A stretch of DNA of 64,000 nucleotides. Source: Chloroflexota bacterium. Lineage in GTDB: Bacteria > Chloroflexota > UBA11872. Each line of letters starts with the position of its first letter. The first letter of the stretch is position 1. Position numbers and translations under genes: made by a program. Shown in pieces: positions 4,427-61,614 of this stretch. The stretch is taken from the NCBI GenBank assembly GCA_965263175.1, contig OZ253587.1:136105-200104 (forward strand), given 5' to 3'. The notes under the pieces are model-generated. The model worked only from the letters and a program-made list of their open reading frames with translations. It did not search any database and was not told the DNA's origin.

Positions 4427-4539
4427 CGGGGCGGTCTCTCGGCTGGCACTGCGCGCCGCAGCATGCCCCACCGGCCCGTTGCTTGCGTACTATGGCCGCC
4501 CGGCACTTCAGCCGAGTCGTATAAAGGGGCGGGGTCGCG

Positions 4540-4977
4540 GTGTACGCCATCGTCATCGGCTGCGGGCGCGCGGGCGCCGAGATCGCCAGCCGCATGTGCG
4601 AGCAGGGCCACTCCGTGGTCGTGATCGACCGCGACCGCGCGGCGTTCCGCCGGTTGTCCGAGGGCTTTAGCGGCACGACCCTGCTGGGCCAAGCCATCGA
4701 CGAGGACTGCCTGATCTCCGCCGGCATCGAGCGCGCCGACGCCGTCATCGCCACGACCTACGGCGACAACTCCAATCTCATTGCCGTGCAGCTGGCCCGT
4801 AAGCGCTTCAACGTCGAGCGCGCCATCGCCCGCGTCAAGGACCCCGTACGGGCCGCCGTCTTCGCCGAACTCGGCTTTGAGACGATCCCCTCCACCACCA
4901 TCGTGGGCAGCGCCTTCGAACAAGCCCTCGGCTGGGATCCGCCCGAGCCGAACGGCTTCGAGGGCAACGGGAGCTAG
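4540..4977 (+). CDS. TrkA-N (NAD-binding) domain protein, potassium transport
   Basis: MYAIVIGCGRAGAEIASRM...VVVIDRD is a Rossmann GxGxxG TrkA-N motif. GTG start. Confidence 0.6.
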   Translation: MYAIVIGCGRAGAEIASRMCEQGHSVVVIDRDRAAFRRLSEGFSGTTLLGQAIDEDCLISAGIERADAVIATTYGDNSNLIAVQLARKRFNVERAIARVKDPVRAAVFAELGFETIPSTTIVGSAFEQALGWDPPEPNGFEGNGS

Positions 4978-4983
4978 CGGCTC

Positions 4984-5658
4984 GTGTTCGTCATCATCGC
5001 CGGCGGCGGCAAGGTTGGCGGCCAGCTGGCCCGCGACCTGCTGGCCGGGCGCCACGAGGTCGTCGTCATGGAGAGCAACCCCCTGAAGGCCCGGGCCCTG
5101 CAGGACGAGATTGGCGACGCCGTCGTTCCGCACGACGCGTCCGAGGGCCGCTGGCTGATCGACGCGGGTATCGCTCGGGCCGACCTGCTGATTGCGGTCA
5201 CCGGCGACGACGAGGACAACATCGTCATCTGTCAGCTGGGCGCGGCCCTTTCGGACGGTCGGGCCCGCACCATCACCCGCATCAACAACCCCAGGAACAG
5301 CGACACTTTCCGCACGCTTGGGATCGAGGCCATCGTCAACGCCACCGACCTGGTGATGACCATGATCGAGCGCGACGTCAGCGTGGCCCCGGTCGTCCAC
5401 CTCATGCGACTGCGCAGCGCCGGCCTGGAACTGGTGGAAATGACCGTGGCGGAAGGATCCGCGGCGGACGGATCGACCCCCGAGGAACTCGGCTTGCCTG
5501 AACAGGGCGGCCGGATCAGCGTCATTCTGCGCGACGGCACCGCCGTGCTACCCGCGCCGACCACCCGCCTGCAAGTCGGCGACTCCGTAGTCCTGGTCGC
5601 CCAAACCGAGTTCGAGGAAGCCCTCGGCCGCCAGTTCGCGGCCCCCACCATCGTCTAG
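4984..5658 (+). CDS. trkA: Trk system potassium uptake protein TrkA (TrkA-N + TrkA-C)
   Basis: VIIAGGGKVGGQLARDL...VVVME, plus a C-terminal RCK_C-like region (LVEMTVAEGSAADGSTPEELGL). Confidence 0.65.
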   Translation: MFVIIAGGGKVGGQLARDLLAGRHEVVVMESNPLKARALQDEIGDAVVPHDASEGRWLIDAGIARADLLIAVTGDDEDNIVICQLGAALSDGRARTITRINNPRNSDTFRTLGIEAIVNATDLVMTMIERDVSVAPVVHLMRLRSAGLELVEMTVAEGSAADGSTPEELGLPEQGGRISVILRDGTAVLPAPTTRLQVGDSVVLVAQTEFEEALGRQFAAPTIV

Positions 5659-5761: not shown

Positions 5762-6976
5762 CTACAGCCGGTAGGCAATCTCTCCGTGCTCGGCCGTATC
5801 CAGGCCCGCCGCCTCGTCGTCGCCCGAGACTCGCAGCCCGACTGTCAACTTGAGCGCCCAGAGAATCACCGTCGTCATCACAAACGCCCAGGCCCAGGTG
5901 GCCAGGATCGACACGATCTGGATACCGACCTGCTCCAGGCGCGAGGCGTCCGTGAACGCCGCGATTCCGCCGAAGCCCACCCCCACGAACAGACCGGTCG
6001 CTAGCGCGCCCCAGGTGCCGCCGACGCCGTGCACGCCCCAGACCGACAACGAGTCGTCCAGCTTGAGCTTCTTGAGCAACTCCGCCGCCAGGTAGCAGAA
6101 GATTCCGGCCAGCAAGCCAATGATGAGCGCCGGCATCGGACCCACAAAGCCCGCCGCCGGGGTCACGGCAACCAGGCCTGCGACCGCCCCGGACGCCGCC
6201 CCGATCACCGACGGCCGGCGTTCAACCGCCCAGGCGGCGGCCGTCCAGCCCAGAATCCCCGCCGCGGCCCCGGTATTGGTCACCACGAACGCGTTGACCG
6301 CGCTGGCGTCCACGGCCAGCGCCGAGCCGGCGTTGAAGCCGAACCAGCCAAACCACAACAGGCCCGCCCCCAACACCACCATCGGGATGTTGTGCGGCTC
6401 CATCGGGTCCGATCCAAAGCCGAGACGCCGGCCAAAAATAACGGCCGCGGCCAGCGCCGCCACGCCGGTGTTGATGTGCACCACGTTGCCGCCGGCGAAA
6501 TCGAGCGCGCCCATCGCGTCCATCCAGCCGCCGCCCCACACCCAGTGCGCCACCGGGGCGTACACCAACGTGACCCACAGCACCGTGAACAGCACGTAGG
6601 CCTTGAACTTCATCCGCTCGGCGAACGCGCCCGTAATCAGCGCCGGCGCGATCACCGCGAACATCCCCTGGAAAATCATGAATGTCTGATGCGGAATATT
6701 GTCGGCGAAGGGGCCGGGCGCCGTGGCGCTCACGTTGTTGAGGCCCAGATACTCCAGGCTGCCGATGAACCGCCCCACATCGGGGCCAAACGCCAGGGTA
6801 TAGCCCCACAACACCCACACGATCCCGACGATGCCCATGCTCATGAAGCTGTGCATCACGGTGGCTGCCGCGTTCTTACTGCGTGCCAGCCCTCCGTAGA
6901 ACAGTGCCAGGCCCGGCGTCATCAACAGCACCAGCGCGGAGCAGACGAGCATCCACGCCATGTCCGCCTGATTCAT
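5762..6976 (-). CDS. amt: ammonium transporter (Amt family)
   Basis: MNQADMAWMLVCSALVLLMTPGLALFYGG... has multiple TM segments. The C-terminus DTAEHGEIAYRL is typical of Amt. A GGAGG RBS lies upstream of the ATG at 6976. Confidence 0.8.
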   Translation of the reverse strand: MNQADMAWMLVCSALVLLMTPGLALFYGGLARSKNAAATVMHSFMSMGIVGIVWVLWGYTLAFGPDVGRFIGSLEYLGLNNVSATAPGPFADNIPHQTFMIFQGMFAVIAPALITGAFAERMKFKAYVLFTVLWVTLVYAPVAHWVWGGGWMDAMGALDFAGGNVVHINTGVAALAAAVIFGRRLGFGSDPMEPHNIPMVVLGAGLLWFGWFGFNAGSALAVDASAVNAFVVTNTGAAAGILGWTAAAWAVERRPSVIGAASGAVAGLVAVTPAAGFVGPMPALIIGLLAGIFCYLAAELLKKLKLDDSLSVWGVHGVGGTWGALATGLFVGVGFGGIAAFTDASRLEQVGIQIVSILATWAWAFVMTTVILWALKLTVGLRVSGDDEAAGLDTAEHGEIAYRL

Positions 6977-7311: not shown

Positions 7312-7434
7312 GAGACCTTTGCACAACGCCCTTCGTCCGCGAAGGTGCGGCCCGCTCTTGCTCCCTCTCCCTGTGGGAGAGGGTTGGGGTGAGGGTCTTC
7401 CGGGCAACAGTCCCCCGGATTACGCAAAGGTCTC
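7312..7434. mobile_element. MITE-like element, full copy, about 123 bp, with TIRs GAGACCTTTGC...GCAAAGGTCTC
   Basis: Terminal inverted repeats plus an internal perfect 9-bp hairpin, CCCTCTCCC-TGT-GGGAGAGGG. The same family recurs at least six more times in the window. Confidence 0.75.
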
Positions 7435-7556: not shown

Positions 7557-8363
7557 TCAAGGGCGGCCGCCTGCGGATCCGCTGTCGGTCGCGCCCGCTC
7601 GGCTACTCCCCGGACCGGCCCCGGCGGAGGGCGGTTCGGTGGCTTCCACCGCCTCGCCGTCCGGCACCGGAGCGGCGCCTTCCTCTAGCAGGATCTCTTC
7701 CAGCTCGTCCTCGGGCGTCTCCTCTTCGACCTGCCGCGCCGCCGTTACCTGGACCACGGGCTCGTCCGGGTCGGTCAGCGGCTCATACGCGCCGTCCGCC
7801 GCCCGCAGATCGCGGACCTTTACCTCGTCGCCCACCTCCTCCAGGCCCGACACGTCGGCGATCAGACTGGAGGGGATCTCGATTGGCAGGGCCGTGACTT
7901 CGACCTCTTGCAGAATCTGAATCACCACCACCTCCGCGTCGTCGCTGGCCGGCGCGTGCCCCGTCAGCGATACGCGCACCATCAGCTCAATCGGCTTGCT
8001 GATATCGATCTTGCGCAACGTGACGTGCACCAGGCGGTTCGTCAGCGTGTCGATATCCACCGCATCCATCAGCACCGGCTCGGTGGCGTCCGGCGACTCC
8101 AGGTCCACCAGCTGGCCGGTCGTCTGGGCACGCACCAGGTCCGCCAGCGCCCGCTCGGACACCTGCATGGCAATGGAAGGGCGGCCGGCTTGCACCAGAT
8201 TGGCCGGGATCAGACCTTCCCGCCGCAGGCGTCGGACCTTCTTTCCCAGGACGGTGCGGGGTTCCGCCGCCAGGCGTTGACGTTCGGGCACGGCTCGCTG
8301 CTCCTCGGTTCGGGTGGCGGCGCGACCTTGTGACGGAGACGCTGGGTCGGCGCGGAAAAACAC
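7557..8363 (-). CDS. rplY: 50S ribosomal protein bL25 / general stress protein Ctc, with acidic C-terminal extension
   Basis: GKKVRRLRREGLIPANLVQ motif of the L25/Ctc family. The ORF begins with GTG at 8363, and the true start may lie further downstream. Confidence 0.6.
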   Translation of the reverse strand: MFFRADPASPSQGRAATRTEEQRAVPERQRLAAEPRTVLGKKVRRLRREGLIPANLVQAGRPSIAMQVSERALADLVRAQTTGQLVDLESPDATEPVLMDAVDIDTLTNRLVHVTLRKIDISKPIELMVRVSLTGHAPASDDAEVVVIQILQEVEVTALPIEIPSSLIADVSGLEEVGDEVKVRDLRAADGAYEPLTDPDEPVVQVTAARQVEEETPEDELEEILLEEGAAPVPDGEAVEATEPPSAGAGPGSSRAGATDSGSAGGRP

Positions 8364-17375: not shown

Positions 17376-17438
17376 GAGACCTTTGCCCAACGCCCCGCGT
17401 CCTCGACGGTGCGGCCCGCTCTTGCTCCCTCTCCCTGT
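17376..17438. mobile_element. MITE fragment (left half), interrupted by the IS5-family insertion
   Basis: GAGACCTTTGCCCAACGCC...CTCTTGCTCCCTCTCCCTGTG, followed directly by the IS terminal repeat. Confidence 0.65.
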
Positions 17439-18628
17439 GGAGACCTTTGCTTAACTGCGGCATGCACGGCCGAGGGGGTGAGATCGGGGCCAAACGGCGG
17501 CCAGCGGCGGCCACAACGGCCGGGCGCCGGGGGATCGTCGGGCGGTCCCGTGGGGTTCCCCCGCCGCGACGGCGCACGGATCCCACGTTAGCCACCGGCC
17601 AGCGCCTGCAAGCGGCTCGCGCGCCGCAGGTTGTAGGCCATACATTTGAACCACAGTTCCACCGCGTTCCGCGCCAGCCCCAGGTAGCGCACGGTCCGGT
17701 ACCCGTAGCTCCGCTTCAACGTCCCAAAGACGTGCTCCACCGGTGCCCGCACCTTCCCGATCAGCGCATTGCGCCGCTGCTGCCAGGAGGGCAGCCCGCG
17801 CTGGTGCTTGTGCGAGCGGTGCATGATCCGGTCGTTAATCCCCTGCGCCCGCAACCGCGCCCGCCGGGCCTTGGACTCGTAGGCCTTGTCCGCGTAGACC
17901 GCCCGCTCGTCGCCGCTGATCAACGTGTCCGCCACCTCGCTTTCGTTCACGTGCGCCGGCGTCAGCACGGCTCGCCGGATCAGCCCCGACGCCGCATCGA
18001 CCCCCAGGTGCGCCTTGTAGCCGAAGGGGGCGCGCCCACCTTTGCGCGTCCAACTCGCCTCCGGGTCGGTGGCACTGCCCGCCCCCGGCCCCTCGTCCAT
18101 CGACGGCCGCCGCGCCTGCGCCGCCACCAGCGTCGCGTCCAGGAGCGTGCCCGCCTTGACCAGCCAGCCGGCGGCGTCCACTTGCCGGGTCACCTCGGCG
18201 AACAAGCACTCGCCCAAGCCCCGGTCCGCCAGCGCGGTCCGAAAGCGGCTGATCGTCGAGTGGTCGGGCACCGGGTCCTGCAGGCCCAGCCCGACGAAGC
18301 GCCGGAACGACAGCCGGTCCCAGAGCGCCGCCTCGATCTCGGGGTCGGAGGCCTGGTACCACTGCTGCAACAGCAACACCTTCACCATCAGCAGCGGCGG
18401 ATAGCTGGGCCGCCCCTCGGGGGCGGCGTAGATGTCGCTGACCACGACCGCGAGCCGCTCCCAGTCCACGACCTCGTGGAGCTGGTCCAGCCGCGCGTTA
18501 CGGCCCACCGGCGGCGGCAACCACGCGTCCACGAACGAGGCGTCCCCTACCTGTCGATGCATGGGCCATCTCCACCAAAGTCCCGTCGTCCCCATGGTGG
18601 CCGCATAGCCCAGTTATGCAAAGGTCTC
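17439..18628. mobile_element. IS5-family insertion sequence (about 1.19 kb), copy 1
   Basis: Imperfect TIRs GGAGACCTTTGCTTAACTGCGGCATGC / GGAGACCTTTGCATAACTGGGCTATGC (the right TIR read as reverse complement). Flanked by the 6-bp direct repeat CCTGTG. Encodes one DDE transposase. Confidence 0.7.
17588..18595 (-). CDS. IS5 family DDE transposase
   Basis: N-terminus YPPLLMVKVLLLQQWYQASDPEIEAALWDRLSFRRFVGL (InsH-N/DUF772-like). C-terminus VEHVFGTLKRSYGYRTVRYLGLARN. 335 aa. Confidence 0.8.
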   Translation of the reverse strand: MGTTGLWWRWPMHRQVGDASFVDAWLPPPVGRNARLDQLHEVVDWERLAVVVSDIYAAPEGRPSYPPLLMVKVLLLQQWYQASDPEIEAALWDRLSFRRFVGLGLQDPVPDHSTISRFRTALADRGLGECLFAEVTRQVDAAGWLVKAGTLLDATLVAAQARRPSMDEGPGAGSATDPEASWTRKGGRAPFGYKAHLGVDAASGLIRRAVLTPAHVNESEVADTLISGDERAVYADKAYESKARRARLRAQGINDRIMHRSHKHQRGLPSWQQRRNALIGKVRAPVEHVFGTLKRSYGYRTVRYLGLARNAVELWFKCMAYNLRRASRLQALAGG

Positions 18629-19068: not shown

Positions 19069-20522
19069 GCACCAAGCCCTCGCCCCTGAACCGCCGCCAA
19101 GCCCTCGCGGCCGGCGCGGCCTCCCTGGGCGCTCTCGCCCTGGCCGCCTGCGGCGAGTCGCCAACCGAACGCGCCGCCGGTTCGCTGCCGCAAGGCCTCC
19201 AGGCGGAGTTGGCACGCAACCTGGAACGCGCCCGCGCCGAGGCCCGCACCGTCACCGAGGCCGCGCCGCGGGCCGCCGTCAATTTGCCCGCGCCGGGCGC
19301 AGGGCATCCGGTCACCGTGGCCATGTACCCCTCCAACCGGGTCGGCGGCAGCCTGTTCGGCCAGTTCGTCAACGGTCTGGCCGCGGCTCGCGAGCGCGCC
19401 GAGGAGCGCTACGCCTACACCGAGGCGCCCCTGGACTACGGGCGCAACGCCTCCTCCTTCAGCATCAGCACCTCCCTGGACGCCCTGGTGAACGTCAACC
19501 CGGACCTGGTCATCTTTTTCCGGGCCGACCAGGCCGACCTGCTGGCCAACGACCGACTGGCGCCGCTGGACGACTTCCTCGTGTCGGACCCGGACTTCAA
19601 CTCCGCCGACTTCTGGCCAGGCCTGCTGGAGACCGGCCGGCACGAAGGCGCGCAGTTCGGCCTACCGGTGGCTGTCTCGCCGCATGTGCTGTTGTTCAAC
19701 CGCTCGCTGGCGACCGAGCTACAGGTCGAACCGCCCGCCCCCGATCCGCTGGCCTTCGACGCCGAGGTCTTCCTGGATACCGTGCGCCGGCTGCACATGG
19801 AGCCGCCGCCCTCCGGCGGGTTGGGCAGCGTGGGCTACATATCGCGGTTCACGCCGGAACCGAATGCCGATGGCGACTACTCGGCTTCGCCATCGCCATT
19901 CGAACTGCTGCAGTCGGCTGTCGGAGACATTCGGGGACCCGGCAACGACTTCGCACCCCTCACCTCGCCGCCAGCCATAGCCGTCGCCGAGTTCCTGCGC
20001 GCCTGGGTGCACGACCATCGCTTGGCCATCACCGATGGCCGCACCACCCGCTCATATCAACGTACGGGCCAGTTCGGCTTCACGGGCACCATCCTGGCGT
20101 TTCTCCCGCCCACATGGCTTATCAGTGGCGGGCTGGACGTCTACCCCATGCCCAACATGGGCACCGGCCGCAACCCGGCCTTCGTCCACGCCATGATGGG
20201 CGTGCTGGCCAGCGCCAAGAACCCGGAACTCGCCTACGACGCCCTGCGCCACCTGGCGGCGGGCCTGCGCTCGAGTTCGATTCTGCCCGCAACCCGGATC
20301 TCAGCCGAAGGCGTGGCCGCGCGCGTCCCGGACCTGCCCCCCCAAGGCGCCAACCTAGTCGAGCAGCTGATGCCCAACGCCGTCTACTCCACCCTCAGCC
20401 GCCGCCAGGCCGGCCTCATCACCAACGGCATCGTCGGCGACATCGTCTTCGGCGACCAACACCCCCAAGAAGGCATGCAAGCCATCGCCAACCGCCTCCG
20501 CGCGGAGAACACTGACGCGTAG
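19066..20522 (+). CDS. extracellular solute-binding protein (ABC transporter substrate-binding, Tat/lipoprotein signal)
   Basis: GTG start. VSTKPSPLNRRQALAAGAASLGALALAACGE has a twin-arginine motif and a lipobox (LAAC). About 485 aa, with a periplasmic binding protein-like composition. Confidence 0.5.
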
Positions 20523-20559
20523 GAGTACGCCTCGGCTAGAATTCTATCGGCTGCCGGCT

Positions 20560-21357
20560 ATGTCGTACGACAGCTTTGTTGCGTCGAGAGAGGCTGACGT
20601 GGCGGACAACACCATCGCCCTCGAGTTGCACGGTTCCGACTTTGTCCTAGACGACTTGGGCACAGCGGTCGAGCACTTTCGGGGGCTCCTAAGCGACTTG
20701 GCGACCGAAGTGGCCGAGGGTGTCGTGGTTACCTGACGGCTTGGCCGTCTCGGGACCGGAAGCATCGTCGCCGAAGTTCGCTGCGAAGCCGAAGATCCCA
20801 CGGCGGTAGACCGGGTCATCGCCGCCTACGACTGCGTCGGCGCGGCCCTGGCCAATGGCGAGCCCATTCCTTATTCAGAGGCTATCGTGGCGCACACAGA
20901 CCGCCTGACCGGCCTGATTAACGGTCGAGTCACGTCGGTCCACTTCAGAACCAGGGGCCAGGTGCACGAGGTTCAACAGCCCGCGCCGAGCGCGCTCGCG
21001 GAACAAGACCCGCACCTGGACTCGTTCGGCGCGGTCGAAGGCATGGTCGACACGCTGGCTTGGCGCCGCGGGATTCGATTCGTTGTCTATACGGACGACG
21101 AAGCGCGTGGCGTTCCCTGTTACATGAGCCTCGAGGACGAGGCAAAGATGGCGGGGCTCTGGCGCAAGCGTGTGCGCGTCGAGGGACTGCTCCGGCGCGA
21201 TTCGAACACGGGCTTGCCCTTGTCCATTCGTGACGTGACCAACATTGAGGTCCTCGAACCGCCAGCCGCCGAGCCCGAGGACCTCTGGGGCATCCTGCCA
21301 ACCGTTGGCGACCGCAAGCCGGAGGAGATCATCCGAGCGGGGTGGGATGGCGTCTGA
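20560..21357 (+). pseudogene. upstream partner of the PIN toxin, 265 codons in one frame interrupted by a single in-frame TGA at 20734-20736. The track ORF 20887..21357 is the part after the stop.
   Basis: ATG at 20560, then the TGA, then the same frame continues into the conserved module DSFGAVEG...RKRVRVEGLLRRDS...EEIIRAGWDGV. The stop overlaps the PIN start (ATGGCGTCTGA). Confidence 0.4.
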
Positions 21358-21826
21358 CCGTCCACGGCTCTATTGGGACTCGTGTTGCTTCATCTCATAC
21401 CTCAACGGGGACGCCACACGTTCAGAACTGCGCACGCTCATGGCTGATGCCCAGGCCGGCGGCGTGCTGATCGTCACCTCGGCTATTTCGGTCGCGGAAG
21501 TGGCGTACGTTGCGCCGGAGTCGCCGGGCCGCCCGCTGGATCCAGATGTTGAGCGCCGGATCGAAGACATGTGGCGCTGGCGGCAGGCTATTCGGCTGGT
21601 CGAAGTCCAAGCCGGCCTCGCCGCACGTGCGCGAACCCTGCTTCGCCACGCGCTAACAAACGGCTGGGAACGGAACCCTCGCGATGCGATTAATCTCGCC
21701 TCGGCCCGGCAAGTGTCCGCATCGACGGTTCACACCTACGACGAGCGATGGGACCGTTACGCGCAGGTCATCGGCAGAAACATCGAGCGCCCAGATCTGC
21801 TATATGTGTCGCAGGCCGCGCCATAA
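21347..21826 (+). CDS. PIN domain protein (VapC-like toxin)
   Basis: MASDRPRLYWDSCCFISYLNGD... has the PIN acidic motif (D of LYWDS). Translationally coupled to the upstream gene by an 11-nt overlap. Confidence 0.6.
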   Translation: MASDRPRLYWDSCCFISYLNGDATRSELRTLMADAQAGGVLIVTSAISVAEVAYVAPESPGRPLDPDVERRIEDMWRWRQAIRLVEVQAGLAARARTLLRHALTNGWERNPRDAINLASARQVSASTVHTYDERWDRYAQVIGRNIERPDLLYVSQAAP

Positions 21827-21902: not shown

Positions 21903-21940
21903 AAACCGCCGATAACGCAGCCACACACCAACTGCACGCC
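21903..21940. repeat. 36-bp repeat B (AACCGCCGATAAYGCAGCCAYACACCRACTGCACG), second copy at 30538-30575
   Basis: A near-identical string is found directly upstream of the pepF start and here upstream of the MITE and IS cluster. Confidence 0.45.
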
Positions 21941-21999
21941 CGCCACCCGGCTGTCGGCCTGGGGCGTGGCCACCCGCGCCCCGGACCTGCCCCCGAGAA

Positions 22000-22033
22000 G
22001 AGACCTTTGCACAACGCCCTTCGTCCGCGAAGG
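22000..22033. mobile_element. MITE left part, split by the IS1595-family insertion. The right part is at 24817-24914.
   Basis: GAGACCTTTGCACAACGCCCTTCGTCCGCGAAGG followed by the IS inverted repeat. The MITE resumes at ...CCGCGAAGGTGCGGCCC at 24817. Confidence 0.65.
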
Positions 22034-22061
22034 GGCTTATAGCGATAGCTAGCCAAACCGT

Positions 22062-22226
22062 CTAATCCGCGCGGGCCGCATCGCGCCGCGCCTGGGCCTC
22101 GCGCTCGAAGTCCCATTCGGCTTTCGGCGGCCCCTGCATAATGGCGCGCGCGATATTCTCCGGCGTGTCGGGGATTGGTTCGGGCAGCGGCTTGGGCGGG
22201 CGGCCGCGCGTGCGCTTCTTCGTCAT
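22062..22226 (-). CDS. small basic protein (54 aa) with an AT-hook-like RGRPPK motif, translationally coupled (ATGA overlap) to the methyltransferase
   Basis: MTKKRTRGRPPKPLPEPIPDTPENIARAIMQGPPKAEWDFEREAQARRDAARAD. The ATG overlaps the methyltransferase TGA. Not present in the ORF track because it is shorter than 60 aa. Confidence 0.35.
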   Translation of the reverse strand: MTKKRTRGRPPKPLPEPIPDTPENIARAIMQGPPKAEWDFEREAQARRDAARAD

Positions 22227-23782
22227 ACGAGCCTCATTTGCATCGGCTTGCCGGTGTACGGGTCGGCCATCAACGGCAAGACGGGCGGGAGCTGGTTGAA
22301 GTAGTCGGCCATGGACCAGCGTTGCATCCGCGGGTAGGCCATGCCGCCGACCTGAATCGTGCCCATGCCGGCCGTCTCGGTTCGCGCGGCGTGCGTGTCT
22401 ACGCGATCCACGGTGAGATAGCAGCCGAGGGCCGCGCGGTCACGGGCGATGACGTGGTTGAAGTCGCGCAAGTTGCCGAGGCTGAACGCGCCGCCCTTGA
22501 CTTGAGCGAGCGCGAGCCGCGTCACGTCGGCCTCGGGTTGCTCCCAGACCGTGCCCCGGCCGTCCACGCCACCATCCGCCACCTGCTTCGTATTGGGCAC
22601 AAAGCCATTAAGCCGGGTGACCGCGCAGGTCTCGAACGCGAACGGACGTTCGGCGGCCAGCTTGGATGCGCCCGCCAGGTCGTAGGGGATGCCGTAGGCG
22701 GGAATGCTTGGGTCTTGGAGCCGCCGGTCGCGGATCACGTCAATGGCAAAGGGCGAGATATCGACGCCAAGCCACGGGCGGCCCAACTTGTGCGCAGCCT
22801 CGACGGTCGTGCCGCAGCCGCAGAACGGGTCAAGCACAACGCCATCCCTTGGGCTGGACGCGGCGATCACACGCTCAAGCAATGCACGCGGTTTCTGGGT
22901 CGCGTAGCCGAGGCGCTCTTTTCCAAGAGCCACCGGGATGTCACTCCATAGATTGCTCACCGCCACGCCGTCCCATTCGTCACGGTACTGCTTGCGAAAC
23001 GGCTTGTTATTGGCGTTGTAGTGGATGCGGTTTTCGGCATGCAGGCGCTTGAGGTTGGCTCGACTGACACGCCAGCCGTGCGGCGGGTTGTGCCCGTTCC
23101 ATTCGTATTTCGGTGAGGCATGGAGACCTGCATCGCTGTACAGGTCAGCCACGGCTCGATAGACCCCTTGCTCATCGCGATGCTTGAACGGTCGCATGCC
23201 AGGCGTCTCTTTACGGACGCGCGGGATGGTCACGACGTGCTGCGGCTTGGCGTAAAACAAGACGAGGTCGGTCACCGTCCCGAACGTCCTGGTCGGACCA
23301 CGTGTGCCCTTGACGCCTGACCGCTCCCAAACGATCTGATTCCTGAAGTTCGCAGCACCGAAAATGCCATCAAGCAGGATTTTCAAGTAATGGCCTGCGG
23401 TCGGGTCACAGTGCAAGTAGAGGCCGCCCGTCGTCTTCAGCAGCCGATGGCAGTGTTCGAGCCGTTCGGCCATGTAGGTCAGGTAGCTGAGCATCCCCGA
23501 CGGCCCCAGGATGCTGTACAGGCCGACGATGGCGGCGTGCGCGGGCCGTGCGATGGCTGAACGGTAGGCGTCCATGCGTTCGGCCGCGTCCGCGTCCCAG
23601 TGCCACGTATCGGTGAAGGCGCGGTATTGCGCGCCGCCGACCGTCTTGCCAAACAGCACGTTGTAGTTCGATTGCGAGTTGAACGGCGGGTCGAGGTACA
23701 CGAGGTCCACGGTCTGATCGTCCCACTCGCGCATCCATTCCAGGCAATCGCCGTAGTACAGCGCGTTCAGCGTGGGGTGCAT
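22223..23782 (-). CDS. beta-class N6-adenine/N4-cytosine DNA methyltransferase (N6_N4_Mtase) with a C-terminal Mrr-like (PD-(D/E)xK) nuclease-type domain
   Basis: Motif IV VYLDPPFNS near the N-terminus, then motif I VLDPFCGCGTT. The C-terminus has ADGGVDGRG...(23 aa)...LAQVKGG, resembling the Mrr_cat DGGxDG...QxK signature. Confidence 0.6.
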   Translation of the reverse strand: MHPTLNALYYGDCLEWMREWDDQTVDLVYLDPPFNSQSNYNVLFGKTVGGAQYRAFTDTWHWDADAAERMDAYRSAIARPAHAAIVGLYSILGPSGMLSYLTYMAERLEHCHRLLKTTGGLYLHCDPTAGHYLKILLDGIFGAANFRNQIVWERSGVKGTRGPTRTFGTVTDLVLFYAKPQHVVTIPRVRKETPGMRPFKHRDEQGVYRAVADLYSDAGLHASPKYEWNGHNPPHGWRVSRANLKRLHAENRIHYNANNKPFRKQYRDEWDGVAVSNLWSDIPVALGKERLGYATQKPRALLERVIAASSPRDGVVLDPFCGCGTTVEAAHKLGRPWLGVDISPFAIDVIRDRRLQDPSIPAYGIPYDLAGASKLAAERPFAFETCAVTRLNGFVPNTKQVADGGVDGRGTVWEQPEADVTRLALAQVKGGAFSLGNLRDFNHVIARDRAALGCYLTVDRVDTHAARTETAGMGTIQVGGMAYPRMQRWSMADYFNQLPPVLPLMADPYTGKPMQMRLV

Positions 23783-23785
23783 GGC

Positions 23786-24730
23786 CTAGGCGATGAGGCT
23801 CGCGCCGGTGAGTTGCTTGCCCTCGAATCCCCGCACCATCGCGGTCATCTGATCGATGGTGTCGAGGCTGCGCTGGTTGTAGCGGCCCTCGAACTCGCGC
23901 ACGTAGCGATGCAAGTGCTTCGGACTCATCTTGTGGTACACGCCGTTGTGACCGCGCTTCAACAGGCTCCAGAAGCTTTCCAGGCCGTTCGTGTGGGCCT
24001 GATCGTTCACCCACTGGTGCGTGCCATGCCGGACGGTTTCGTGATAGGGCAGGCCGCGATAGGCCAGCGCTTCGTCCGTATAGACCAACGCGCCGGGGTG
24101 CGTCCGCTCGCGCACGAACGTCCGCAACGTGGGGCCGGTGGTGTTCGGTACCACGTCGGCGCTCACGCGGCCTGTGGCGCGGTCCCTGACGCCAGCGACC
24201 GGCGTCTTGCCCACGGTGCCGCCACCGGCGTAGAGCTTCTTGTCGGCGTGCTTGTTCTTCTCCAAGCCGCCCACGTACGTTTCGTCGGCTTCGACCGGGC
24301 CGGTGAACGCGGGGTTTTCGTCGCGCCAGGTCTCGCGGATGCGGTGCGCGAGACGCCAGGCCGACGTGTAGGCGATGCCGAGGTCGCGATGCAGCTTCAT
24401 GGCCGCCGTGCCCTTGATGCCGGTGGACATCAAGTAGACCGCGATGGCCCAGACCTGGTAGTCGAGATTCGAGTTGGCCATGAGCGTGTCGGTCTTGACC
24501 GAGAAGTGCTTGCGGCAGGTGCGGCAGCGAAACGGCTGTGGCTTGCGGGATTTGACATCGGCCACGTTCTCCGACTCGCAGCGGGGGCAGCGTACGCCAT
24601 CGGGCCATCGGGTCTCAACGAACCAGACTTCGGCGGCGTCATTGTCCGGGAACATCCGCGTCACGTCCAAGAGGGACAGACCCTTGCGCTCGGCTCGTCC
24701 CGGCCCCTTGCGGCTCATGTTGCGGCTCAT
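23786..24730 (-). CDS. IS1595 family (ISXO2-like) transposase
   Basis: N-terminal zinc ribbon CPRCESENV...RCRTCRKHF, then the VEADETYVGG...KNKHADKKL hallmark of DDE_Tnp_IS1595. Confidence 0.75.
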   Translation of the reverse strand: MSRNMSRKGPGRAERKGLSLLDVTRMFPDNDAAEVWFVETRWPDGVRCPRCESENVADVKSRKPQPFRCRTCRKHFSVKTDTLMANSNLDYQVWAIAVYLMSTGIKGTAAMKLHRDLGIAYTSAWRLAHRIRETWRDENPAFTGPVEADETYVGGLEKNKHADKKLYAGGGTVGKTPVAGVRDRATGRVSADVVPNTTGPTLRTFVRERTHPGALVYTDEALAYRGLPYHETVRHGTHQWVNDQAHTNGLESFWSLLKRGHNGVYHKMSPKHLHRYVREFEGRYNQRSLDTIDQMTAMVRGFEGKQLTGASLIA

Positions 24731-24816
24731 CGCTCACCCCTTCGAATTGATACACAATTCTAGCCACCACTCGAAGGGATGTCAAGGCTTTTGGCTAGCA
24801 TTCGCTATAAGCCCCT

Positions 24817-24914
24817 CCGCGAAGGTGCGGCCCGCTCTTGCTCCCTCTCCCTGTGGGAGAGGGTTGGGGTGAGGGTCTTCCGGGCAACAGTCCCTCGGGT
24901 TACGCAAAGGTCTC
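24817..24914. mobile_element. MITE right part (continuation of the 22000-22033 fragment)
   Basis: ...GCGAAGGTGCGGCCCGCTCTTGCTCCCTCTCCCTGTGGGAGAGGGTTGGGGTGAGGGTCTTCC...GCAAAGGTCTC. Confidence 0.65.
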
Positions 24915-25028
24915 TACCTAGCGGCAGATTCCATGCCCAAGTCTGGTAGAGTTCTATTCTGTCCACGCAAATTGCCAGCCAACCATTGGCATCGCAGCCC
25001 GGCGGCAGCGACGGAGGAACGAGGAATA

Positions 25029-26954
25029 GTGTCAACATTTAAAGCGAATGCGTTCCTACTCAAGAATATTCTTGACAATGTTGCCAACGGTAGCATCCAA
25101 CTCCCCGACTTCCAGCGCGGCTGGGTGTGGGACGACGACCGAATAAAGGACCTGCTGGTCAGCATTTCGCGCGGCTTCCCTATCGGTGCCGTGATGACTC
25201 TCGATGCCGGTGGGGACTTGCGGTTTCGAAGCCGCTTAGTCGAGGGCGTGGATTCGAATGGCGACGATCAAGCATCCGAATACCTGCTGGATGGCCAACA
25301 GCGTCTTACGTCGCTGTACCAGGCGCTGCGGTATGAAGGGCCGGTAGAAACCCGCCACCGACCTGGTGGAAGATGGGTCATCAAGCGATGGTATTACATC
25401 GATATGCAAAAGATTCTGAATCCCCTGATCGATCTGGAGGACACCGTCGTTAGCGTTCCTGAAGACCGAGTTGTCAGGTCAAATTTCGGCCGTGATATCA
25501 CTTTGGATCTGTCCTCGTCTGACTTCGAATTCAAGCATCATATGCTGCCCACCGAGAAAGTCATGAATATCATGGATTGGATGCTTGGATACCTTGGTTA
25601 TTGGAAGGATCGCGGCGAGCATCCGGAGGGTGACCCGGTTGCTTTCTTCACCCAGTTCAAGGCTGCCGTGCTGGACAACTTCACCGACTACCAGTTGCCG
25701 GTCATCAGCCTTGGAAAAGGGACGTCCAAGGAGGCTGTTTGCACGGTCTTCGAAAAGGTCAACACCGGCGGCGTAACTTTGAATGTGTTCGAGTTGGTGA
25801 CCGCCGCCTTCGCTGCGGAAGTGGGCGAGGACGATTTCTCGCTGCGGGACGACTGGGAAGCGCGAAGCAGGCGGCTACACTCGGAATTCGGCGTGCTTCA
25901 AGGCGTCGGCGCTGATCAATTCCTGCAAACGGTGACACTGCTGGCGACCCAAGCACGGCGCAGGCGAGCTACTTCTGAGACTCCGTCGAGTCAACTTCCC
26001 GGTATCGGCTGTAGGCGAGCAGACATCCTCAACCTGACGTTCAGCGACTACCAGACATGGGCCGACCGAGTGGAAGAGGGATTCAGGGTCGCCGCAAAGT
26101 ACCTGCGCGGCCAATTCGTTTTCACCAGGTACAACGTGCCTTACAACACCCAACTGGTTCCCCTGGCAGCGTTGTACGTTGAGTTGGGCAAGGAGTTGGC
26201 GCCCGCCAACGCGCAGGATAAGCTGAACCGCTGGTTCTGGTGCGGCATCTTCAGCGAAGCCTATGGCGGCGGCGGTGAGACTCAGTTTGCTCGTGACCTC
26301 GAACAGGTTGCCAACTACATCCGAGGCGGCGCCGAACCGGAACTTGTTAGCCAGGCGAGCTTTGTTCCCGAGCGGCTGTTGTCGTTGAGAACACGCAACA
26401 GCTCTGCCTACAAGGGTCTGTACGCGCTGCAAATGAAAAGCAACGCGGCTGACTGGCGCAGCGATGGACCCTTGACCTTCGCCACCATCCATGACGAGAA
26501 CATCGATATCCACCATATTTTCCCGGTCGCCTGGTGCAGGCATGCCGATCCGGAGGTGCCAAGACACCTGTACGACTCGGTAATCAACAAGACGCCGATT
26601 GACGCGCAGACGAACCGAATCATCGGTGGTAAGGCGCCGTCCATCTACTTACCCCGCTTGCGCCGTCGTGATATCGGCGAAGAAAAATTGAATCGAATTC
26701 TTGAATCGCATTGGATCGATCCCAAGCTGCTTGAGAGTGATCTTTTTGGCGACTGCTTCGTCGAGCGCGGTCAAGCAATGCTCGACTTGATCAACCGCAC
26801 GATGGGTAAGCCAGCCGTCGATGGGCGTCAGGTCTTTCGCGATGCGCTGGACTCCGCCGGTCTGGCTGAGCAGGACAGCGATGACGAGGTTGAGTACGAT
26901 CCCATCGGCGACAGCGCCTTTGGCGACGAGACACTGGGCGGCGACAATTCATAA
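25029..26954 (+). CDS. GmrSD-like type IV restriction endonuclease candidate (N-terminal DUF262, C-terminal DUF1524/HNH-like)
   Basis: N-terminus LPDFQRGWVWDDDRIKDLLVSI...DGQQRLTSLY (DUF262 DGQQR motif). C-terminus DIHHIFPVAW (DUF1524 His-Me finger). GTG at 25029 with a GGAGGAA RBS. The upstream ATG at 24933 is an alternative start. Confidence 0.65.
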   Translation: MSTFKANAFLLKNILDNVANGSIQLPDFQRGWVWDDDRIKDLLVSISRGFPIGAVMTLDAGGDLRFRSRLVEGVDSNGDDQASEYLLDGQQRLTSLYQALRYEGPVETRHRPGGRWVIKRWYYIDMQKILNPLIDLEDTVVSVPEDRVVRSNFGRDITLDLSSSDFEFKHHMLPTEKVMNIMDWMLGYLGYWKDRGEHPEGDPVAFFTQFKAAVLDNFTDYQLPVISLGKGTSKEAVCTVFEKVNTGGVTLNVFELVTAAFAAEVGEDDFSLRDDWEARSRRLHSEFGVLQGVGADQFLQTVTLLATQARRRRATSETPSSQLPGIGCRRADILNLTFSDYQTWADRVEEGFRVAAKYLRGQFVFTRYNVPYNTQLVPLAALYVELGKELAPANAQDKLNRWFWCGIFSEAYGGGGETQFARDLEQVANYIRGGAEPELVSQASFVPERLLSLRTRNSSAYKGLYALQMKSNAADWRSDGPLTFATIHDENIDIHHIFPVAWCRHADPEVPRHLYDSVINKTPIDAQTNRIIGGKAPSIYLPRLRRRDIGEEKLNRILESHWIDPKLLESDLFGDCFVERGQAMLDLINRTMGKPAVDGRQVFRDALDSAGLAEQDSDDEVEYDPIGDSAFGDETLGGDNS

Positions 26955-26959
26955 ACGTC

Positions 26960-27500
26960 TGAGAAAGCTCTGATTTAATCGCCGAGCGGTGACGGTCTAT
27001 GCTCACGCGTCACGGCTGCGTGGGGATGGGCGCGTTGCTGCCGTGGCCGCAACTGGAGCAGCGCATCCAGCCGGTCTATCCGACCAGCCAGCGCGGTCGG
27101 CCCCCTATCCGCTGGCCGCGATGCTGCGGATTCACTGCGTGCAACTGTTCGACAACCTCAGCGACCCGGCGATGGAGGACGCACTCTATGATATTGCGTC
27201 CATCCAGCGGTTGGTGGGGCTGGCGGCGCGGGCTGCCTGGGCGTGGACCGGCGGCCCGAGCATCAGGGCCGGGCGATCGACTGGCAGGTGGCCCAGCGGC
27301 CCGGGCAACGGTGGCGCTTGGCCCCGGGCGGCGAAGCCGCGCGAGCCGAGCGGCGCAAGGCGTCGATCCGAGCGAAGGTGGAGCATCCCTTTCGGTATGT
27401 GAAACGGCAGTTCGGCTACGCGTGGGTGCGGTATCGAGGCTTAGCCAAGAACCGGACTCGGCTCTGCCTGCTGTTTGGGCTAGCGAATCGCTAATCGCCG
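26960..27500 (+). pseudogene. internally deleted IS5-family transposase remnant (N- and C-terminal pieces in different frames)
   Basis: [36 protein letters not shown] (InsH N-terminus) and [39 protein letters not shown] (IS5 C-terminus). The DDE core is missing. Flanked by 14-bp direct repeats TAATCGCCGAGCGG at 26976 and 27492. Confidence 0.6.
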
Positions 27501-27762
27501 AGCGGCAGGCACCCGCCTAACGCGGGATCCGTGTGCCCTGTGCGGGGCCGCGCACAGCCCGACCACGGCTGAGGATAGCGTCCCGGCCCGAACGGCGGCT
27601 CTCCCGATGCCTCGCGGGCCCCATCGACGCCCTCCACACTCCGCGACCCTAGTTGTTCAGAGCTTTCCTAGGACTAGGCTCGGGATATAGTTCTGAGAGT
27701 TACGGGCGACGCTGTCCGACAGCCTTGGCTCGCCGAAAGAACCCGGCCTAGCGGAGGACTGC

Positions 27763-28137
27763 GTGGCGGAAACGCCTCTGAACGACACCTCGCACTGGAA
27801 CTCGTTTGGGGCTGTTGAGGGCGCGGTGGAGAAGCTGGCCCAAGGCCATGCGGCGCCGTTCGCCGTGTACCCGGACGAAGCTCCGCGCGGCGTTCCCTGT
27901 TACGTCCGCGGCGAGGACGCGGCCAAGCTGTCAAGGCTCTGGCGCAAGCGTGTCCGAGTCGTGGGACTGCTCCGACGTGATTCCAGCACGGCTCTGCCCT
28001 TGTCCATCCGCGACGTCACCAACACTCAGCTTCTTGAACCGCCAGCTGCCGAGCCCCAGGACCTCTGGGGCATCCTGCCGCCGAGTCCTGGCCCGACGCC
28101 CGAAGAGATCATCCGAGCGGGGTGGGATGGCGTCTGA
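27763..28137 (+). CDS. paralogue of the PIN-partner protein (conserved C-terminal module only)
   Basis: NSFGAVEGAVEKLAQG...RKRVRVVGLLRRDSSTALPLSIRDVTN...EEIIRAGWDGV is about 70% identical to the 21000-21357 module. Confidence 0.5.
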   Translation: MAETPLNDTSHWNSFGAVEGAVEKLAQGHAAPFAVYPDEAPRGVPCYVRGEDAAKLSRLWRKRVRVVGLLRRDSSTALPLSIRDVTNTQLLEPPAAEPQDLWGILPPSPGPTPEEIIRAGWDGV

Positions 28138-28219
28138 CCGTCCACGGCTCTACTGGGACTCGTGCTGCTTCATCTGGCACCGTACTGGAACAGAGACAGA
28201 TTGGCGGCGTGTGTGAAAT
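28127..28219 (+). pseudogene. truncated PIN toxin gene (second copy), only about 30 codons
   Basis: MASDRPRLYWDSCCFIWHRTGTETDWRRV*. The sequence diverges after codon 17, and a MITE sits about 35 bp downstream. Confidence 0.5.
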
Positions 28220-28253: not shown

Positions 28254-28375
28254 GAGACCTTTGCACAACGCCCTTCGTCCGCGAAGGTGCGGCCGCTCTT
28301 GCTCCCTCTCCTCGGGGAGAGGGTTGGGGTGAGGGGTCTTCCGGGCAACAGTCCCTCGGGTTACGCAAAGGTCTC
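28254..28375. mobile_element. MITE-like element, full copy
   Basis: GAGACCTTTGCACAACGCCC...GGGTTACGCAAAGGTCTC. Same family as 7312-7434. Confidence 0.75.
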
Positions 28376-29322: not shown

Positions 29323-29967
29323 CTACGACCTTGGTCTGTAGTCGCCGTCGCCGTATTGTGTCTTGTTCACGTCAATAGTAATAGAATCTTGGCATTTTCC
29401 AGTCCAAGGTGGATTACGGTCCCGCCAGTCCTGTGCACGGATTTTGTATTTGCCGTAGGTGTAGTCACTGTGTGACGGCTCACCTGATCCACCATCGGTT
29501 GTGTACATGTCGGAATTTCCACGCGAGACGTAGGTGCCCAAGAGTGGTGAAACGCCTGTTTCCCATCGGTACCACAACGCTGGTTCACCAAAGGCGATCA
29601 GGTAGCCGTCGTAGCACCATTCTGTCCGAGATGTGAGTTTGTACATCATGGCCCGAGTGATCGGGACACGGTGCATACGGATAACCGTTGTTTCCTTGCA
29701 CCTGACATCACCTGACGCCGCTGCCGACATTGCGGCCACGTTGAACATCGGGTAGTTTGGTGCGGCGCTCAGCACAGTGGTCGAGGCAAGTGGAACATCG
29801 CGAGTGATCACTTCAAATGTTTCAACCCCTGGTGGGTCAACCGGTACGTCGTCAATGGCAGGGGGTTCAGGTACCGGACCCTTCGCGCTGACGCTCCCGA
29901 TCATCAGGGCCGCCAGGAATGCAAGCCTCCGAAATTCAATTAACGCATTCAGGTGAAAAGTGGACAC
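29323..29967 (-). CDS. secreted hypothetical protein (Tat-like signal), low-GC
   Basis: Putative GTG start giving MSTFHLNALIEFRRLAFLAALMIGSVSA|KGP (RRxFL motif). About 50% GC against 68% for the genome. No family recognised. Confidence 0.4.
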   Translation of the reverse strand: MSTFHLNALIEFRRLAFLAALMIGSVSAKGPVPEPPAIDDVPVDPPGVETFEVITRDVPLASTTVLSAAPNYPMFNVAAMSAAASGDVRCKETTVIRMHRVPITRAMMYKLTSRTEWCYDGYLIAFGEPALWYRWETGVSPLLGTYVSRGNSDMYTTDGGSGEPSHSDYTYGKYKIRAQDWRDRNPPWTGKCQDSITIDVNKTQYGDGDYRPRS

Positions 29968-30038
29968 GTCGCCGGGAAAAGTGAACACATTCGGGCGAAA
30001 ATCGAACACATCGCCGCAAACACGGTGAACACGGCCTC
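29955..30038. repeat. four tandem about-21-bp direct repeats (GAAAAGTGRACACRTCGSCGS core), iteron-like
   Basis: Units at 29955, 29976, 29997 and 30018, lying at or within the 5' end and promoter of the secreted-protein gene. Confidence 0.6.
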
Positions 30039-61484: not shown

Positions 61485-61593
61485 GAGACCTTTGCGTAAC
61501 CCGGGGGCGGTTGCCCGGAAGACCCTCACCCACAGGGAGAGGGAGCAAGAGCCGCCGCACCTTCGAGGACGCGGGGCGATTTGCAAAGGTCTC
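61485..61593. mobile_element. MITE-like element (shorter variant, 109 bp, opposite orientation)
   Basis: GAGACCTTTGCGTAACCCGGGGG...GCAAAGGTCTC. The paralogous locus at about 63725 lacks it (empty site). Confidence 0.75.
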
Positions 61594-61614
61594 TGGGGAG
61601 GGAGGGGATGTGGA

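Follow-up and report, generated by a model that had tools for sequence, protein, structure and literature searches.

The window, a stretch of 64,000 nucleotides from a Chloroflexota bacterium, carries on its plus strand two overlapping genes: a partner gene of 252 codons (20599..21357), which belongs to a family of ~250-aa proteins (homologues P0001-P0016) and, with a TGA at codon 46, is here a pseudogene or nonsense allele; and a gene for a VapC-like PIN-domain protein of 159 aa (21347..21826). The PIN start codon, ATG 21347, overlaps the stop codon of the partner (TGA 21355-57) by 11 nt in ATGGCGTCTGA, as a preliminary description of this DNA had noted, and no canonical Shine-Dalgarno sequence lies ahead of it. 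The same description had read a single frame from 20560 to 21357, and this frame is indeed open in the window sequence apart from one interruption, the TGA at 20734-20736. Its choice of ATG 20560 as the start, giving 265 codons, was wrong and we rejected it: the position reads ACG in L001 and L011, the two closest relatives (a metagenome contig and a Chloroflexota MAG chromosome, OZ240251.1, respectively), and the homologues point to GTG 20599. That the partner ORF is real is evident from protein searches, in which its homologues reach E=2e-152. Among 5.8 billion proteins, a word-indexed search gave 24 relatives, 16 of them with 250-252 aa and all of these beginning MADNTIALE; since the full-length homologues begin in this way and a conserved AGAGG precedes the GTG, we place the partner start at 20599.

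This Shine-Dalgarno-like AGAGG (20589..20593, plus strand) lies 5 nt before GTG 20599, and the arrangement GAAAGAGGCTGA-N-GTG is conserved in seven related loci. About 55 nt upstream of the start is a -10-like box, TAGAAT (20537..20542, plus strand), which reads TATAGT in relatives; the TAGAAT/TATAGT block is conserved in the upstream alignment of the seven loci and recurs before the short copy of the gene described below. We take the box as a putative promoter element on the strength of this alignment, a generic sigma-70 scan of the upstream region having found no full promoter. Within the partner gene, an internal ORF of 156 aa (20887..21357, plus strand) begins at a GTG with GAGG ahead of it, in tcaGAGGctatcGTG; its product would retain the C-terminal OB fold and tail described below, and its expression is speculative.

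The PIN protein matches Pfam PF01850 with E=5e-14 (53.4 bits, cutoff 23.6) and has the acidic active-site residues D11, E51, D113 and D131, which are conserved across the intact PINs linked to partner homologues. The PINs of partner-linked loci form one clade, with the shared motifs YWDSC, TS..S..EVAF, DAIHLA and HTYD and with intact acidic residues. The His of DAIHLA, His116, is kept in 18 of the 19 other PINs linked to a partner (that of L021, which is frameshifted, has a gap at this column) and is Asn in the window, through a single C-to-A change in the codon at 21691-21693, three residues past the catalytic D113. Judged from this conservation, H116N may attenuate the window toxin; it may also be harmless, His116 not being a universal PIN catalytic residue.

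The in-frame TGA at codon 46

The interrupting TGA (20734..20736, plus strand, next base C) stands in place of the TGG codon for Trp46, a residue that is invariant in 90 of 90 diverse family members aligned. L001 and L011, with 91-92% nucleotide identity to the window, both have TGG at codon 46, and no homologue in the family alignments, the 90 diverse members included, has TGA at this codon, all having Trp. Between the window and L001 the dN/dS of the partner gene is 0.15 overall and 0.17 downstream of the TGA, and hence the lesion would be recent; the window branch has 19 synonymous versus 6 non-synonymous changes, which is no general sign of relaxed selection. The preliminary description had offered a recent nonsense mutation, a recoding site or the boundary of two genes as explanations. 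The first of these agrees with the invariant Trp, with the TGG of close relatives and with the dN/dS of 0.17 past the stop.

A functional TGA, whether by programmed read-through, by selenocysteine recoding or as a boundary between two genes, is highly improbable. With C as the next base, UGA terminates leakily and tRNA-Trp can read through it, TGA-C is reportedly the weakest terminator context in E. coli (Poole et al. 1995), and read-through by tRNA-Trp would give back the wild-type residue; against this, homologues have Trp in every case and TGA in none, and RNA folding downstream of the TGA is no better than in shuffled controls (z=0.20). Selenocysteine insertion or programmed UGA recoding would go with a conserved UGA and a structured element, and what we found were TGG codons in the homologues and a fold at the level of the controls, so that the suggestion of a recoding site falls away. 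That of a gene boundary fails as well, the homologues being single polypeptides of 250-252 aa. The same gene, moreover, ends normally at a TGA (21355-57) whose position is conserved in the homologues. Recoding through a SECIS element was rejected on the fold (z=0.20) and the TGG (Trp) found throughout the homologues, and an alternative genetic code was rejected because TGA is the partner's own conserved stop.

An error of sequencing or assembly, a single G-to-A at 20734-20736 in a gene that is intact in the organism, is unlikely, but some observations speak for it: the nearest relatives, L001 and L011, read TGG, the remainder of the partner gene is under purifying selection and has no further lesion, and an intact PIN toxin gene behind a broken partner would be a danger. 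Nor did a second source for the TGA turn up, since a metagenome scan with the DNA around it found nothing and an exact look-up of the window PIN protein gave no record in other assemblies. On the other hand, consensus assemblies seldom carry substitution errors, the sequence around the TGA has no error-prone context such as a homopolymer, and the window PIN separately has a unique change at an otherwise conserved His, which fits real decay of the module. From the sequence comparisons, the codon-46 TGA is either an error or a recent nonsense lesion of the ordinary kind; it is no recoding signal.

Predicted structure, family and PIN linkage of the partner

An AlphaFold2 model of the partner, built from the alignment of 90 sequences (mean pLDDT 89.5), has three parts. 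Residues 1-126 (20599..20976, plus strand) form an N-terminal α/β domain of order β-α-β-β-α-α-β-β, acidic (mean net charge -7) and with Trp46 in its second strand, to which no fold family could be assigned. Residues 140-218 (21016..21252, plus strand) are predicted to form an OB fold, a barrel of five β-strands in which a helix lies between β3 and β4 (β1-β3, helix, β4-β5); structure comparison places ssDNA-binding proteins and the anticodon-binding domains of class IIb aminoacyl-tRNA synthetases nearest to it. The partner as a whole has no counterpart among solved chains (TM-score about 0.25), and a Foldseek search with the whole chain gave a weak match to TiaS, a tRNA-binding protein (prob 0.6). 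The conserved residues R156, R200, R211, F161, Y164 and W188 of the OB region are compatible with, though not proof of, a putative single-stranded nucleic-acid binding. The C-terminal tail, residues 219-252 (21253..21354, plus strand), is modelled with a pLDDT of 56-78 and yet has a column conservation of 0.82-0.98; some of the positions best conserved across the family lie here (A/R/G 229-231, E242, R246, R249 and D250; consensus ...ARG...E..IRRLRDA). Low model confidence together with high conservation is what a segment that folds upon binding a partner typically shows, and the tail is our candidate PIN-binding segment. The codon of D250 provides the AT of the PIN start ATG, and some of the conservation at the end of the tail may therefore stem from the overlapping start codon.

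When 1.84 billion cluster representatives were searched with the partner profile and without filters, 1,929 proteins were recovered at E<=1e-3 (413 at E<=1e-30), nearly all of 245-270 aa and matching end-to-end. In their sources, family members are named only 'hypothetical protein' and come from Chloroflexota, Anaerolineae and Acidobacteriota MAGs. Pfam gave no significant match for the window partner or the 90 diverse members, with a weak lead to tRNA_anti_2/tRNA_anti-codon in three family members (E about 0.05-0.1); NCBIfam and PHROGs returned nothing meaningful for 14 members, and the window partner likewise has no NCBIfam match. None of the PADLOC-DB v2 defence models matches the partner, the PIN protein or a distant partner homologue, and a PDB sequence search gave chance matches only for the partner profile and none for PIN. 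No match was found by tblastn of one member (P0189) against annotated plasmids and phages, and no relative of the partner in a scan of viral contigs. The remark in the preliminary description that the partner is larger than the usual antitoxin and matches none known is hence borne out: it has 252 codons and no model in Pfam, NCBIfam, PADLOC or PHROGs recognises it. Full-text literature searches yielded no description of an OB-fold antitoxin for PIN/VapC, which is absence of evidence within the literature searched, and two large toxin-antitoxin surveys, Makarova 2009 (PMC2701414) and NetFlax 2023 (PMC10440598), do not mention the OB fold. The partner family is therefore undescribed in the curated resources checked, and it is widespread in uncultured bacteria.

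In all 17 of the 17 intact partner-PIN loci measured, the PIN gene lies directly downstream of the partner gene with an overlap of 8-14 nt, the partners being 29-95% identical to P0001, the intact protein most closely related to that of the window. Wherever the partner is intact and the sequence continues beyond it, L028 included, PIN comes directly next; this covers about 20 loci of the 1,929-representative family. Co-occurrence with PIN genes, which the preliminary description had proposed to look for, with a PIN gene unlinked to the partner in other genomes to count against the pairing, is thus found at every locus measured, and the VapBC-like arrangement of a partner immediately upstream of the toxin gene and overlapping it is shared by the window and these 17 loci. 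Pairwise identities between partners and between PINs are correlated with r=0.98 (means for distant pairs, 34% versus 35%), and from this equal divergence it follows that the pair is passed on and diverges as one unit. In several loci the modules adjoin IS1595 transposases, methylases, terminase and ParA/SSB genes; at one distant locus, L024, the pair is likewise flanked by an IS1595 transposase and an N6_N4 methylase. The surroundings of the pair in three related genomes are conserved and made up of housekeeping genes, with those for S20, the pol III delta subunit and YchF among them, a setting that also fits a stable cellular function.

Short copies and their surroundings

The C-terminal module of the partner was said in the preliminary description to be conserved in a second copy at 27763..28137, and about 124 residues do recur there, at 79% nucleotide and 63% amino acid identity. 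This copy (plus strand) encodes a short form of 124 aa that consists of the OB fold and tail, the N-domain being deleted, and that ends in the same 12 residues as the full-length copy in the window. Its upstream region is homologous to the promoter and 5' region of the full-length gene, including, by alignment, a TATAGT box (27686..27691, plus strand). The original start has been lost together with the N-domain codons, and a new GTG at 27763 has a GGAGGA Shine-Dalgarno sequence (27753..27758, plus strand) 4 nt ahead of it, which the short copies of L001 and L009 share. Judged by these signals, the short copy carries its own putative promoter and a strong ribosome-binding site and does not look like a random fragment. 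It is followed by a PIN remnant (28127..28216, plus strand), in which sequence comparison finds the first 16 codons to be PIN-homologous and the rest to be unrelated sequence up to a stop.

The same 124-aa form with the same start occurs in L001 (2068..2442), directly after the full-length pair, and in L009 (1510..1884), and behind the short copies of the window, L001 and L009 the PIN gene is cut to 16-29 codons. In every decayed copy PIN is truncated and the OB-plus-tail ORF is still open. The dN/dS of the short forms is 0.39-0.60, compared to 0.04-0.11 for the same region of full-length genes, so that they are under relaxed constraint, though still under some, and may be in the course of simple decay. 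The deletions of the N-domain suggest that OB fold plus tail is the core or minimal functional unit and the N-domain an accessory. L009 has three OB-plus-tail copies within 4 kb (1510-1884, 4460-4774 and 5001-5459), one an intact 124-aa form, one truncated at the N-terminus and one with a divergent C-terminus, and its detectable PIN stubs are of 17-29 codons.

The PIN pair and the short paralogue are separated in the window by a block of ~5.7 kb (~22000-27680) that is absent from the syntenic L001. It holds genes for an N6_N4 DNA methylase (22223..23782, minus strand), an IS1595/ISXO2-like transposase (23786..24730, minus strand) and a GmrSD_N (DUF262) protein (24933..26954, plus strand), and fragments of an IS5-like transposase (26989..27520). 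Just downstream of PIN, 21938-21994 repeats 20285-20341, the 3' end of an upstream 624-aa ORF without a Pfam match, over 57 nt with 82% identity; in L001 the repeat extends over 219 nt. Because the stretch after PIN repeats the 3' end of this ORF, we suggest a tandem duplication, taking in the end of the 624-aa ORF, as the origin of the full-length pair and the short copy. The 624-aa ORF, which precedes the PIN module, has immediately upstream of it an intact ORF for an IS5-family transposase (17588-18595, minus strand; DDE_Tnp_1 and DUF772). Two kinds of repeats were also observed. An iteron-like tandem array at 29942-30011 comprises 3.3 copies of the 21-nt unit AACACATTCGGGCGAAAAGTG, which in L009 forms two arrays (6374-6510 and 7976-8091). 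A dispersed repeat of ~37 nt, probably a REP-like element, occurs in intergenic positions on both strands in copies 84-97% identical (7312-7348, 17376-17412, 24790-24821, 28254-28290 and 61557-61594), one of which sits just past the truncated PIN remnant.

Toxin-antitoxin reading and comparison with known systems

On balance we favour, with reasonable though far from full confidence, the reading of 20599..21826 as a two-gene operon of the toxin-antitoxin type, with a VapC-like PIN toxin and a non-canonical OB-fold antitoxin, recently inactivated here. The reading draws on the gene order with its short overlap, the co-divergence, the patchy and mobile-element-associated distribution and, above all, the asymmetric decay, while for the antitoxin role itself we infer from gene order, gene overlap and decay patterns. 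Which gene would be toxin and which antitoxin is indicated by the decayed copies, which lose PIN and keep OB plus tail; the promoter box kept and the GGAGGA gained by the short form point the same way, as does H116N, which is unique among 20 partner-linked PINs.

By analogy with VapB tails, the tail of the partner, supported by the OB domain, would bind PIN and block its acidic active site. The OB domain may contribute binding to nucleic acid (RNA, ssDNA or the operator), and it could serve as a scaffold on which PIN binds, attach to the operator or to RNA, or sense a ligand. Dimerisation or regulation would be left to the N-domain, since this can be deleted in the natural short forms. In the window, the partner would just have been knocked out by the TGG-to-TGA change at Trp46, and there are several ways, not mutually exclusive, in which a broken partner might be tolerated. 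PIN could be attenuated by H116N beside D113, or its translation uncoupled by a stop that lies 610 nt upstream of its start; the short OB-plus-tail paralogue 6 kb downstream, with its identical C-terminus, may neutralise PIN in trans; and reading of UGA-C by tRNA-Trp could restore the native residue. The lesion could also be bypassed at the internal GTG 20887 with GAGG ahead, which might yield the 156-aa OB-plus-tail product.

A less probable account, with a modest chance of being right, is that the pair is not a toxin-antitoxin system but a two-subunit nuclease or a sensor-effector pair, in which the OB protein would recruit or sense nucleic acid (tRNA, ssRNA or phage ssDNA) and would guide or permit cleavage by PIN, and not only inhibit it. 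The nearest relatives of the OB fold, ssDNA-binding proteins and class IIb synthetase anticodon-binding domains, would suit such a role, as would the weak whole-chain match to the tRNA-binding TiaS and a partner three times the size of a classical antitoxin with a conserved extra domain. The stable chromosomal position amid housekeeping genes in three genomes and, in the window, the adjoining methylase/GmrSD island can be read in the same way, but the defence models of PADLOC match neither protein. Moreover, loss of PIN with OB plus tail kept is what would be expected if PIN were harmful alone and the partner protective, the N-domain is deletable in conserved short forms, and an upstream position with a short overlap is the classical antitoxin-toxin arrangement. 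It is doubtful, though worth stating, that the partner family acts as a sensor antitoxin, in which a particular nucleic acid, such as a tRNA, a phage ssDNA or a replication intermediate, would be bound by the OB fold, perhaps with the help of the acidic N-domain, and this ligand would release or activate PIN; the module would then be a nucleic-acid-triggered switch in abortive infection or stress and not a passive addiction cassette.

If the partner is an antitoxin, as we favour, a new fold would join the antitoxin repertoire, antitoxin function may be tied to RNA or ssDNA binding, and annotation pipelines would gain a model for thousands of 'hypothetical proteins'. What lies in antitoxin position is a family of ~1,900 representatives, of three-part architecture including an OB fold, that is in no curated database. 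The window offers a natural dissection of it, with a nonsense allele of the full-length gene beside a paralogue devoid of the N-domain.

PIN/VapC modules are the most abundant class of toxin-antitoxin systems, and their antitoxins are regarded as small DNA-binding proteins. The module studied here resembles VapBC in its PIN (PF01850) gene with four conserved acidic residues, in the partner gene immediately upstream with an overlap of 8-14 nt, and in the patchy, often mobile-element-associated distribution with orphan and decayed copies. VapB tails occupy the VapC active site, and the flexible C-terminal segment of the partner, rich in conserved Arg, resembles them. In contrast, the partner has ~250 aa compared to ~70-90 aa in VapB, no curated model recognises it, and operator-binding autoregulation is not evident. 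Its acidic α/β domain and OB fold stand where VapB would have a DNA-binding domain of the AbrB, RHH, Phd/YefM or HTH type: the N-terminal AbrB/SpoVT, RHH, Phd/YefM or HTH domain that marks VapB was found neither in the window protein nor in the 90 members compared with Pfam and the 14 compared with NCBIfam, and the module is therefore of VapC type with a new partner, not a strict member of VapBC. Compared with known OB-fold proteins (SSB, PriB, the anticodon-binding domains of AsnRS, AspRS and LysRS, RPA and Stn1), the partner domain shares 10-23% identity, and differs in having no significant Pfam match and in being joined to an N-domain unrelated to them and to a PIN-linked tail. The short form is like an orphan or truncated antitoxin in that it keeps a putative promoter and a strong ribosome-binding site, has its PIN reduced to 16-29 codons and is conserved as a 124-aa ORF in three genomes; unlike these, it derives from internal deletion of the N-domain and not from toxin loss alone, and is under relaxed constraint (dN/dS 0.4-0.6). 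Altogether, the architecture is new for the antitoxin position and extends a well-known kind of system, without defining a new one.
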